A stretch of 7,123 bases of DNA, from the IMG/VR virus record IMGVR_UViG_2737471845_000004; one strand, 5' to 3'. The stretch is from a virus (taxonomy: Duplodnaviria > Heunggongvirae > Uroviricota > Caudoviricetes). Position 1 is the first letter of the stretch, and the number at the start of each line of letters is the position of its first letter. Made by a program: the position numbers. This document shows positions 3,001 through 6,000 of the stretch, piece by piece.

Positions 3001-6000
3001 AACTGACGGCGCGGCATTACGCAGTCATATTCGTAAGCCTCACGGCGGTAGGTGATATTGCCTGGCGTAACGTGACGAATAACCACCCGTCCCCCGCGTC
3101 TGGTGTCCCGGAAAATATCACCGGGGCGGATTTCAGGCCGAGAGAGGCCGCTGGCAGTAAAGCCAGAATTTTTCTTTTTCATGGTTTTATTTTCCTGTCA
3201 GCAGTTCCGGTTTTATTTCCGCACGAATACAAAGTTCAGAAAAAAATTCAGGAGAACCAACAATCTCATTACTTTTCAGTCGGCATTGTGATTTCACTTT
3301 CCCTTTATCCAGGTAAACCAGTACGCGTCCGGTGAAATCATCTGGCACATTAAGCACTACGGGTACATGCGCTCCATGATTATGCATGGCTTACATCCTC
3401 CGTGAATTTTCTTCTGTAACGCGTCTCTGCCACATATTCCGCATAGTCCGACGCAATACTAAGAATCATTTCACCCTCTGACTTGTAGCCACTGGTATTG
3501 ATAAGAAAATATGCAGCTTTCATCATGTCAGCAACGCTCAACAATGCGCCCGCTGCATCTTCCGGTGCGCCATCAAATTCCCGTTTCAGGGAATTAAAAC
3601 GATCATCACGCATGTTTACCCCCCTGAATGACCTGATAACCGCAACTGGTCAGCAACTCGATAAATTCCGGCAGTGTGCCGAAACAGCAATCATCACGCA
3701 GCCGTTCGCAGGATACCTCGACGCCGTTTTCGTAGTGACTCACCATACGTCCGGTAAAATGCAGATCATCATCGTGATGGCTCGTTGACGGCTTAATCAG
3801 TCGCGCACGTTCCGCCAGTTCCAGCAATGTTTCAACGCTTCCGGCAATTGCACCATCCGGCAGGTGATAATTACGCACTATGCGCCCGTTCTCCACATTG
3901 ACCAGCAACTGCCCGGTAAATTTCTCGTCAAACTGAATGCTGTTAAGGTCAGAAATTGACAGGTTATGCATGGTGCACCTCCTGGCGAATACGGGCGGCA
4001 AATACCATCACGCAGCCATCAGGAGATTGCTGGCGTGCTTCCTGTTCGCTGGTGGCCACGATGTGAATCACGCGCGGTTGTGCGGTGCTCAGGGCGATAA
4101 AACGCCAGATAAAATTGTTTTCGCATTTCTGAATAAACAGCGTGTTTTCTTCGCGCCCTTTCCATGTTGCCGAGATATAGCCCATGTCATTGAGCATCTC
4201 GCAGGCATCCACCAGCGTATCGGCGGCTACATGAACAGTGTTTTTACCGTCAGCCATGCAATCACGGTGCACCGCCAGGAAGGTGTATATAAATTTAGGG
4301 TGAGTTTGGGTATGCTGTGTTCCAGCCATAATCGTTACCTCGTTTAACGGTTTGGTTAGACGCCCCGCTACTGCCGCAAACAGTTCGGGGCGTTGTCGTT
4401 TACATCCTCTTACTGAGGTGTGATTTAAATTAAAATCAACTGAATCACAGGTCAAGTATTTTTTGTGATTCTTTTTTGTGTATACTGAATCACATCTTTT
4501 GTTTAGGAGAATGCACATGGCAAAAAACACTATCAACGACAAATCAAAACAGATTTCAATTCGTATCCCACATGATGCTTTTGAAGGCATGGAATCCGTA
4601 AAACTGGACGGCGAAAGCAACGCCGGATTCATAGTAACCGCCATGCGTGGTGAAATCGCCCGCCGCCAGGCAGAAGGAAGAGGAGAAAATCCCCTGGTTT
4701 CTTCGCTCGATGCACTGGCGCAGGTGGAAAAAATCGGTGTCAAAGCGGCCGAGGAGATCGGGCAGCTCGTCACCGTCGCGCGTGAAGAACTCCAGCGACG
4801 CAAGGTCAAAGAGCAGGAATAGCCACTATCAGCGCCATAGTTTGAGGAACGCAGGCGCATTGCTTTACAGGACAGCACCATGAGCGACACAGAATCAACC
4901 AAAACACCATCACCAACTCGTAAGAGACGACGCAAAAATATAGCGCATGAACATGAATCAGAAAGATTCGCACCTTGTTCGTTTGCTCTTGAGAAATTCC
5001 TTAAAGAGCACAGGAAAAAGCTCTCGTTGCAAACCTTGGAACGAACCAAATCTGACTGATCACATTGCCCACCAGCCGCAAATGTGGCATTGTTGGTGAT
5101 GCGTTCAAGTATGTAGCTTTTCCACTGGCGGCTCTCTGCGGTCGCCTTTGTTTTATCCAGAACGAAATCAGACATCAGATTGATCAGCACCTGGCGACCT
5201 GACAAAATCGCATCAGTCGCGCCACCAGCAAAATTTTTTGCTTTCCGGACAGCGTGGCCAACGGCATTTTGCAGCAAAATATTCTGCATTTCTGGCGTGC
5301 TGTAGTAATGGTGATCAGTGCCTTCACATTGAACGAACTTGTCGCTAAAATTCACCCACATAGCAAACATCGCGGTGCTGTAGGTAATTCGTTCACAAAG
5401 GCGCTCCGGCAACGGGGCGCTTTCTCTTTTTGTAACGGTCAGAGCGTTACACATGGCTGTTTTCCTCCATGCGACGGGCTAACCAACGTTGGTAATCATC
5501 TGTGAGCTTTGTGAAAAGATTATTTATTGCCTCAGTTCTCCATTTTTCAGCTTCTGACTTAAATTTATCTTTATCACTTATATCTATAATAAACTCGTCA
5601 AAATCAGAGTCTTCAAAAATATCTTTATCTGCAAAATTCTCCCAATCCTCCCTTAATTGATGCAATGTAGACTCTTCAAATCCCCGTGGATATACAGAGT
5701 AGGCCTTTTGGCCTTGCTGAAGAAAAACGCCCCCCACATTGTGAATCAATGAAGCAACATATGGGGAACAAGCTGCACCATAGTTCTTAAGAAAGTTAAT
5801 TGCTGTATCAGATAATATTCTGCAAAGTACTTGTTCGTATTTAGTGTGTTCCTCATGTGCACTAAACCATAAGAACAAGTTTTCGTAGCGTTCTACACCT
5901 TTGTTAACTAATTCTGTCCCAGGAACACCTATTTTTGATGTGTCGATGGCAATTGCTTTAACCGTATCAAAATCAGCAGAAAACCATTCACCAGAACGGC

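Follow-up and report, generated by a model that had tools for sequence, protein, structure and literature searches.

The 7,123-nucleotide stretch of viral DNA analyzed here (IMG/VR record IMGVR_UViG_2737471845_000004; hereafter the window) carries a compact cassette of two small open reading frames (ORF1 and ORF2) and a terminator, oriented against its surroundings. The cassette most likely keeps the replication genes of a phage satellite off. In the reading we favor, and consider reasonably probable, ORF1 is a ribbon-helix-helix (RHH) protein that represses both its own promoter and that of the replication operon, and the cassette lies antisense within a long ORF resembling eta of P4, translation of which would provide a read-through bypass. 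This reading is built on the computed fold of ORF1, its DNA sites, the co-variation of the two, their exchange as a module, and a conserved open frame with its coupling junctions.

Layout of the opposite-strand cassette

The cassette consists of the following elements:

4505-4509, plus strand: Shine-Dalgarno (SD) sequence AGGAG, 7 nt before the ATG of ORF1
4517-4822, plus strand: ORF1, ATG at 4517, YlcI/YnfO-family protein of 101 residues
4880-5059, plus strand: ORF2, ATG at 4880, basic protein of 59 residues, contains TRKRRRK
5127-5156, plus strand: T1, intrinsic terminator predicted to end the ORF1-ORF2 transcript

All of these, together with the -10-like TATACT described below, were located where the initial annotation had placed them. 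ORF calling and Pfam/NCBIfam scans assigned every other credible gene of the window to the minus strand, which confirms the opposite orientation of the cassette. The description of the cassette as simply lying inside a minus-strand island was incomplete, as its antisense embedding in a conserved, translationally coupled long ORF had been missed. The cassette is fully overlapped by an open minus-strand frame (5454 to 3964) and does not occupy an intergenic gap; this embedding alters our view of the way in which the bypass of the module works.

T1 comprises the hairpin GGCGGCTCTCTGCGGTCGCC at 5127-5146 (7-bp stem with 5 GC pairs, -12.0 kcal/mol), followed by TTTGTTTTAT. The hairpin recurs 3' of ORF1 in Enterobacter (L003), Phytobacter (L012), and other E. 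coli lineages (L002 and L079 among the loci; L-numbers denote the compared loci or lineages related to the window). The tail in these four loci is identical or nearly identical to TTTGTTTTAT, with TTTGTTTTGT in L079, and the stems have changed in a compensatory manner. The retained tail and compensating stem changes are the signature of a real terminator, and the terminator claim of the initial annotation is thereby substantiated. T1 is predicted to act in one direction only, since its minus-strand reading lacks a U-run.

ORF1 is a predicted RHH protein of the YlcI/YnfO family

ORF1 matched the NCBIfam model NF041551 (YlcI/YnfO) with 65.2 bits, well above the curated hidden Markov model cut-off of 30, and its residues 9-50 covered all positions (1-42) of the 42-position profile. 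Its RefSeq relatives bear the same family name, and it matched phrog_6522 with 193 bits. Relatives of ORF1 formed 212 protein clusters across Enterobacterales in a search of 5.8 billion proteins, and only 72 clusters in an exhaustive profile search of 1.8 billion representatives. The latter comprised long forms of ~100 residues and short forms of 55-65 residues that end after the N-terminal domain. A tblastn search of 50,697 phage records gave no match to ORF1. YlcI (DLP12) and YnfO (Qin) of E. coli K-12 share the N-terminal domain family (NF041551) but are short forms without the C-terminal domain of ORF1; their genes lie in lambdoid prophages near terminase genes. No functional study of YlcI, YnfO, or DUF3950 was found in the literature.

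The protein is divided into an N-terminal RHH domain (residues ~9-55), which contains the predicted recognition strand (~11-17, KQISIR), and a conserved C-terminal long helix (59-100). The N-terminal domain was modeled with a predicted local distance difference test score (pLDDT) of 90 as an extended segment followed by helices 19-28 and 35-54. In this single-chain model, the beta-alpha-alpha topology was superimposable on solved RHH domains. The turn between the two helices, G32-E33-S34, fits the pattern G-x-S/T/N; G-E-S is the family consensus, and E33 is at least 90% conserved. The turns GRS of Arc and GLS of CopG align with this position. Residues 59-100 form one long helix in the AlphaFold2 (AF2) model and are the most conserved part of the protein. 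Taken as modeled, ORF1 is an RHH DNA-binding protein and represents a long, satellite-specific form of the YlcI/YnfO family, in agreement with the RHH-like N-terminus proposed in the initial annotation. Profile and structure searches, suggested there for both proteins, were productive for ORF1 (NF041551, phrog_6522, and the superimposable fold), apart from the Foldseek and Pfam results considered below, and gave only phrog_21027 for ORF2.

Of note, residues 45-86 (window positions ~4649-4774; SSLDALAQVEKIGVKAAEEI) showed a marginal likeness to the helix-hairpin-helix of Hef/XPF in a PDB profile search (E 0.005). We did not build on this likeness because AF2 shows one continuous helix there.

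Predicted operator sites lie over two putative divergent promoters

Four putative ORF1 sites and two putative promoters were found upstream of ORF1:

4419-4494: operator region with sites s1-s4, two inverted pairs bracketing the -10 elements of the leftward and rightward promoters
4419-4426: s1, TGTGATTT
4441-4449: s2, TGAATCACA
4464-4471: s3, TGTGATTC
4486-4494: s4, TGAATCACA
4427-4455, minus strand: predicted leftward promoter of the Kil/Icd-like-to-primase operon, -35 TTGACC (4455-4450) and -10 TAATTT (4432-4427)
4481-4486, plus strand: -10-like TATACT of the predicted ORF1 promoter; its final base is the first of s4, and the spacer holds s3

The sequence TGAATCACA, with at most one mismatch allowed, occurs nine times in the window against 2.0 occurrences expected, and none of 200 shuffles reached nine. 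Four of the nine matches fall within 4419-4494. The half-sites noted in the initial annotation are therefore real and non-random. In most classes and lineages, the sites are located at about -98, -75, -53, and -30 from the ORF1 ATG (within ~3 nt), mostly in alternating orientation. One inverted pair brackets the leftward -10, and the other brackets the TATACT of the ORF1 promoter. The 17-nt spacer of the leftward promoter contains s2, and its predicted transcription start lies within s1. At the leftward -35 position, most lineages have GTCAAG (TTGAC on the minus strand) or the one-mismatch variants GTCAAT, GTTAAG, or TTGCAAG. TATAnT is present at the ORF1 -10 position in most lineages and is degenerate in L004 and L012. 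The ORF1 promoter was not called by a consensus scan because its -35 is absent.

The site sequence and the recognition strand of ORF1 change together, in at least six specificity classes and several genera:

KQISIR strand: site TGTGATTC
QLTTVR or QLFTVR strand: site TGTGTTTC
QQINAR strand: site TGGGATTC
QSLTAR strand: site TGTAAGAC
QMTTIR strand: site GTGA(G/T)ATATACA
QLKNIR or QVKNVR strand: site GTGTGTATTTA

All or nearly all four copies at each locus bear the class-specific bases, with the third site often carrying one mismatch. QLTTVR loci of E. coli, Xenorhabdus, and Photorhabdus have the same sites despite diverged spacers. The ORF1 alignment is nearly invariant outside residues 11-17, and the residues that differ between classes are those of the predicted strand. 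The comparison of the window with L045 revealed flanks that are 90-100% identical around a segment (-150 to +59) of only 40-56% identity, whose content is precisely the operators, the promoters, and ORF1 codons 1-20. This pattern indicates that the recognition strand and its sites have been exchanged as one cassette, like phage immunity regions. As to whether the cassette travels as a unit, a check suggested in the initial annotation, the operator and the strand are swapped together, and ORF2 is missing from many ORF1 loci.

Together, the sites, their co-variation with the protein, and the exchange are strong, though indirect, computational evidence that ORF1 is the repressor and autoregulator of the Kil/Icd-like-to-primase operon. 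Of the functions considered in the initial annotation, it was the repressor/immunity option that gained from the RHH fold, the four sites over both divergent promoters, the co-variation, and the exchange as a unit. ORF1 would act as a repressor rather than an activator. It is highly unlikely that ORF1 binds these sites in another capacity, either as an activator or as an architectural or centromere-binding RHH protein in replication or segregation, like omega or ParG. Only four sites are present, they coincide precisely with the -10 and start regions of the two promoters and do not form an array, and the iterated origin-like repeats of the island lie elsewhere (720-1062) and have a different sequence (AACTGTCTAC).

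Diversification of specificity between co-resident copies was considered but found no support in the one case examined, as both copies in L011 share the same class. Near-matches to the ORF1 site were also seen outside the operator region: an overlapping pair, TGATTCACA and TGAATCACG, at 4062-4072 within the Icd-like gene, and TGAATCAGA at 4954-4962 within ORF2. These may be auxiliary operators or chance occurrences.

ORF2 is probably an accessory gene

ORF2 encodes a short and very basic protein, as initially described. Its start is conserved (ATG with AGGA 9 nt upstream), and the basic N-terminus is followed by a core of 16 invariant residues, ERFAPC.F.LE.FLKE. The C-termini of its relatives have been replaced through frameshifts. 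ORF2 matched phrog_21027 (56.5 bits) and no family of known function, which agrees with the earlier failure to assign it: it had no match in Pfam, NCBIfam, or PADLOC, and a PDB profile search returned nothing. Its 29 protein clusters are all from E. coli or E. albertii. ORF2 is present in 52 of the 92 loci with recognizable ORF1 and in none of the 11 loci from other genera; most lineages that retain ORF1 lack it. ORF1 and its operator persist without it, and alpA directly follows ORF1 in at least three non-Escherichia loci (L003, L009, and L012).

The coding signal of ORF2 is a ratio of nonsynonymous to synonymous polymorphism (pN/pS) of 0.36, with a third-position excess of 15/14/29. It is rather unlikely that ORF2 is not a gene at all, which would leave ORF1 and the terminator as the sole functional plus-strand elements and attribute the constraint to the antisense long ORF or to signals in the RNA or DNA. 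In favor of this explanation, wobble positions are common to ORF2 and the antisense frame, and the pN/pS of the latter is similar, at 0.46; the narrow taxonomic range, the C-terminal frameshift variation, and the inconsistent annotation of ORF2 by the Prokaryotic Genome Annotation Pipeline (PGAP) point the same way. The constraint was nevertheless assigned to ORF2 because the long frame is unconstrained (pN/pS 1.0) where no plus-strand gene overlaps it; the conserved start and SD-like AGGA, the invariant core, and the existence of a PHROG family also speak for a gene. On sequence grounds, ORF2 is a probable accessory gene of Escherichia that is expressed together with the repressor and that ORF1 can function without.

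The initial annotation had also suggested a toxin-antitoxin-like or anti-defense pair. In the former case, ORF1 would be an autoregulating RHH antitoxin and ORF2 a small basic toxin of type II. An autoregulating RHH protein followed by a small basic one would suit such a pair, but we regard the possibility as close to negligible. Neither a conserved two-gene unit nor a recognizable toxin was found: ORF2 is absent from 11 of 11 non-Escherichia loci and from about a third of the loci with recognizable ORF1 while ORF1 and the operators persist, it belongs to no Pfam, NCBIfam, or PADLOC family, its C-terminus is replaced in frameshift variants, and the operator also covers the divergent replication-operon promoter. 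The anti-defense suggestion is not supported either, since ORF1, like ORF2, gave no PADLOC match and no toxin or defense model matched either protein.

An eta-like long ORF overlaps the whole cassette on the opposite strand

The frame that overlaps the cassette and the gene at its end are as follows:

3964-5454, minus strand: eta-like long ORF, 496 codons, ATG at 5454, in frame with the Icd/Kil-like gene
3964-4329, minus strand: Icd-like gene (121 residues; NCBIfam NF033153, 81 bits), first gene of the leftward operon

The long ORF crosses T1, ORF2, ORF1, and the operator region in antisense orientation. Its ATG overlaps the stop codon of the upstream gene (ATGTGTAA, 5447-5454) and is preceded by the SD sequence GGAGG 9 nt upstream. 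In other lineages, the first ATG either overlaps the stop of the upstream AlpA- or Bro-type gene, as ATGA or TGATG, or follows it by 13-22 nt. In most relatives, including those from other genera, the same frame is free of stops from about -200 to +450 around ORF1. The stop-free frame spans all but one or two operator classes, and the other two minus-strand frames contain 13-15 stops each. In the AT-rich 190 nt upstream of ORF1, the linking frame has no stops compared to 5-8 in the others (P about 0.01 per lineage). Seven of the ten lineages tested, with differing operator sequences, showed this pattern, and an eighth (L005) had one stop. The probabilities of an open frame in the three non-coding window segments were 0.022, 0.40, and 0.002. 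The frame falls narrowly short of the following start codon in L005 (by about 15 nt) and in L007.

Across genera, the frame has stayed open without conservation of its protein sequence. Within 5060-5460, indel lengths are multiples of three even though the encoded amino acids are unconstrained, with a pN/pS of 1.0 and no third-position excess. A real conserved protein encoded by 5062-5454 on the minus strand was rejected on the same values. The long reading frame is probably translated only upon activation by a helper phage.

This arrangement resembles the immunity region of P4 (vis/alpA, eta/kil, CI RNA), in which an alpA-family gene is likewise followed by a translationally coupled long ORF. 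In the P4 sequence, eta starts at ATGATGATG, overlapping the stop of ORF88/vis, remains open for 217 codons, and ends in kil. P4 eta contains a constitutive promoter as well as the CI and seqA immunity RNAs; when eta is translated, transcripts from the late promoter can escape termination (PMC10111431). The window has the same alpA/vis-type operon coupled to a long ORF with a nested kil-like gene, and both long ORFs have an internal promoter and a nested Kil/Icd-like end. The N-terminus of the Icd-like protein weakly resembles P4 Kil (blastp against the P4 eta/kil ORF, MAGTQHTQTHPKFIYTFLAVHR, E 1e-4); among 50,697 phage records, the Icd-like protein matched only one, a 16.5-kb record labeled as a phage. 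Unlike eta, with ~199 codons, the long ORF of the window spans 496 codons, and it contains an opposite-strand repressor gene, operators, a second small gene, and a terminator.

No CI/C4-type immunity RNA with a seqA/isrK-type target was found inside the long ORF of the window. Rfam gave no match in the window at E <= 1 or at the gathering score, and the P4 control matched both C4 and isrK; a P4/P1-type immunity RNA in the window was therefore rejected. The absence of C4 and isrK, together with the presence of the opposite-strand cassette, suggests a P4-like alpA-eta/kil region in which a protein repressor replaces RNA immunity. In the ORF1-bearing loci L047 (1692-1877, minus strand) and L064 (2496-2681, minus strand), Rfam detected genes for the C4 and isrK RNAs farther along the corresponding long frame. 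Immunity modules of the protein type and the RNA type can thus be arranged in series, and in some relatives the repressor cassette can, as far as these sequences indicate, accompany RNA immunity instead of replacing it.

We consider it unlikely that the long ORF is untranslated and owes its openness to composition and ancestry, in which case derepression would proceed otherwise, through an AntA/Bro antirepressor or a helper protein acting on the C-terminus of ORF1. The neutral pN/pS and missing third-position excess in 5060-5460 fit this explanation, as do the unsurprising openness inside ORF1 and ORF2 and the lack of an open frame in L004 and L006. An alternative route of derepression would also account for a C-terminal half of ORF1 that is more conserved than simple oligomerization needs, and an AntA/Bro-family gene lies directly upstream in relatives. 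Composition and ancestry, however, do not readily produce a linking frame free of stops in seven of ten lineages, indels in multiples of three, start codons at classic coupling junctions in many lineages, or a frame that in L047 and L064 encloses isrK and C4 exactly as P4 eta does.

Proposed mode of action

In the repressor reading that we favor, ORF1 would form a dimer of dimers, probably through its conserved C-terminal helix. In the resident state, this tetramer would occupy both inverted pairs over the -10 elements and start points of the back-to-back promoters. Because the sites straddle both -10 elements, binding is expected to repress the ORF1 promoter (autoregulation) as well as the internal leftward promoter. 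Such repression would quiet the resident satellite and define its immunity specificity. ORF2 would be co-transcribed with the repressor, and T1 would end the transcript at ~0.66 kb.

Upon helper induction, AlpA-driven transcription would most likely enter from upstream. Coupled translation of the long ORF, as in P4 eta, would sustain elongation through T2 (the terminator of a candidate small RNA, described below), T1 in its minus-strand reading, and the operator region. The read-through transcript would reach the replication genes without using the repressed promoter, and convergent transcription across the cassette would lower ORF1 expression. Instead of read-through or in addition to it, an antirepressor may target the conserved C-terminal domain of ORF1.

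Several observations weigh against this reading. The RHH assignment rests on a predicted monomer. Curated Pfam RHH models matched only below threshold (PSK_trans_fac, E 0.025 for ORF1 of the window; scattered RHH_1, RHH_5, TacA1, CopG_antitoxin, and NikA-like matches among relatives, E 5e-4 to 0.03), and Foldseek found nothing with the ORF1 model. Neither promoter reaches consensus, and that of ORF1 has no -35. The operator physically adjoins the N-terminal codons, so linkage may explain part of the co-variation; linkage alone is insufficient, given the concerted change of four copies and the sharp boundaries of exchange. Within ORF1 and ORF2, the antisense frame would be open with P 0.3-0.9 from amino acid composition alone. 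Finally, L004 and L006 have ORF1 and the operators but several stops in the linking frame, which indicates that read-through translation is not universal.

Candidate small RNA and leader stem-loop

Two further putative regulatory elements were found within the long ORF:

5323-5433, plus strand: candidate antisense small RNA (sRNA) of ~76 nt, with promoter (5323-5351), body (~5358-5397), and terminator T2 (5398-5423 plus CTCTTTTTGT)
4360-4393, minus strand: leader stem-loop of the Kil/Icd-like operon, an inverted repeat followed by the near-invariant UCUAACCA

The putative sRNA promoter (TTCACA-17-TAAAAT) matches the consensus at 10 of 12 positions; four diverged sequence variants retain or improve it (TATAAT, TGaTATAAT). 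The T2 stem is 11 bp long. The RNA has a variable 5' part of ~25 nt and a conserved 3' part (..GTAGGTAATTCGTTCACAA), folds with -23.4 kcal/mol, and is antisense to codons ~8-32 of the long ORF. It had no match in Rfam and no annotation in the relatives.

The leader stem-loop is conserved with compensatory stem changes in the 14 lineages aligned and had no match in Rfam. Read on the plus strand, it looks like a hairpin with a T-run behind it. Judged by its sequence, it may be a stability element, an attenuator, or an RNA target. By analogy with FinO/FinP, the ProQ/FinO-domain protein of the island (175-717) might plausibly act as a chaperone of the sRNA candidate or of the leader stem-loop.

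A tentative extension, about which we have more doubt than confidence, is that the overlapping strands form a switch. The resident state would be plus-strand expression of the repressor and ORF2, the induced state minus-strand translated read-through, and convergent transcription would make the two exclusive; the sRNA (5358-5433), possibly with ProQ/FinO, would set the threshold. If this were true, the cassette would represent protein-based immunity for Gram-negative satellites, layered on or replacing the RNA immunity of P4, and a rare functional gene antisense within a frame whose value lies in being translated and not in its product.

Comparison with known repressors

RHH autorepressors and P4 eta/kil read-through are both of already known kinds. 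Arc and Mnt of the P22 immI region are RHH proteins without significant sequence similarity to ORF1. Unlike theirs, the ORF1 operator consists of four sites in two inverted pairs ~23 bp apart, and the ORF1 gene lies antisense in a long ORF predicted to be translated, in a satellite and not in a phage. The omega repressor of pSM19035 and the CopG-family plasmid repressors belong to a different family from ORF1 (YlcI/YnfO), lack its additional conserved C-terminal domain of 45 residues, and serve plasmid copy number or partition, whereas ORF1 is predicted to control a satellite replication operon.

ORF1 shares its position and logic with the master repressors Stl/Rpr of the Staphylococcus aureus pathogenicity islands (SaPIs) and other Gram-positive phage-inducible chromosomal islands (PICIs), where a sole divergent regulator faces the replication module (PMC6092414). 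Stl repressors are, however, large helix-turn-helix (HTH) proteins inactivated by helper proteins, whereas ORF1 is a predicted RHH protein of 101 residues. The bypass here is probably transcriptional and translational read-through, with AlpA as the known activator in Gram-negative islands. The global repressor of Gram-negative PICIs is called unclear in the foundational PICI paper (PMC6092414). No description of an RHH repressor in Gram-negative satellites was found in the literature.

The cassette is a concrete and widely distributed candidate repressor for which operators are predicted and no fewer than six natural specificity classes exist. If correct, the assignment gives a function to the uncharacterized YlcI/YnfO family, links PICI-like islands mechanistically to P4 through eta/kil-type read-through, and provides naturally occurring small repressors and operators in orthogonal pairs. 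The antisense-embedded arrangement also bears on the upkeep of overlapping opposite-strand coding.

The window as a phage-satellite island

The remaining features of the window are as follows:

6361-6558, minus strand: alpA, AlpA-family HTH protein (Pfam PF05930, 69 bits), presumed activator gene heading the upstream operon
5447-6283, minus strand: T5orf172/MUG113-domain gene (Pfam PF13455 and PF10544), stop codon overlapping the long-ORF start
between the Icd-like and primase genes, minus strand: several small ORFs, then DUF4222
1090-2895, minus strand: D5_N/DUF5906/Pox_D5 primase (Pfam)
720-1062: AT-rich, iteron-type origin-like region between the ProQ/FinO and primase genes, with ~10 copies of AACTGTCTAC in both orientations, often spaced by 11 bp
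175-717, minus strand: ProQ/FinO-domain gene (Pfam PF04352, 84 bits)

DNA matching positions 4300-5500 is present in 1010 of 5426 complete E. coli genomes. Annotated relatives are islands adjoining tRNA-Gly or tRNA-Thr. Their gene order begins with an integrase, a hypothetical gene, an AlpA-type HTH gene, and AntA/AntB, continues on the opposite strand with a YlcI/YnfO family protein, with or without a hypothetical gene, and ends with Icd-like, DUF4222, primase, ProQ/FinO, PerC, and DUF2213 genes. The layout characteristic of PICI-type satellites of Gram-negative bacteria is a tRNA-adjacent series of int, alpA, a Bro zone, and a D5-type primase module. The window itself supplies alpA, the T5orf172, Icd-like, and primase genes, and the iterons; the integrase and the tRNA are seen only in the relatives. 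By its gene content, the window is a Gram-negative PICI-type phage satellite with a layout like that of EcCIMP1, an experimentally mobilized island (PMC11773190). AlpA has a known activator role in such islands (PMC6092414; PMC11773190). The region 720-1062 looks like the iteron-type replication origin of the satellite.

The T5orf172/MUG113 (GIY-YIG-like) gene at 5447-6283 on the minus strand replaces the AntA/AntB gene of the relatives. The N-terminal ~65 residues of the two types of protein are 46-48% identical, and the last 14 residues (...RWLARRMEENSHV) are identical, including the overlap with the long-ORF start. On these sequence grounds, the replacement is a case of domain swapping of the Bro-network type. 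The T5orf172 gene also had a weak PADLOC match to PDC-S57 (E 2e-7).

At the edge of the window (6924-7123, minus strand), the 3' end of a Mutator-family (IS256-like) transposase gene was detected with a marginal Pfam match (PF00872, 20.6 bits). It occupies the place of the hypothetical gene and the integrase of the relatives. With an insertion sequence fragment in place of the integrase side, this copy of the island may be truncated or immobilized. Upstream of alpA (6626-6775), the palindrome TACCCTAAGGGT is present in four to five copies. These palindromes are unlike the ORF1 sites and thus probably mark the control region of the alpA promoter, serving AlpA autoregulation or a helper signal.

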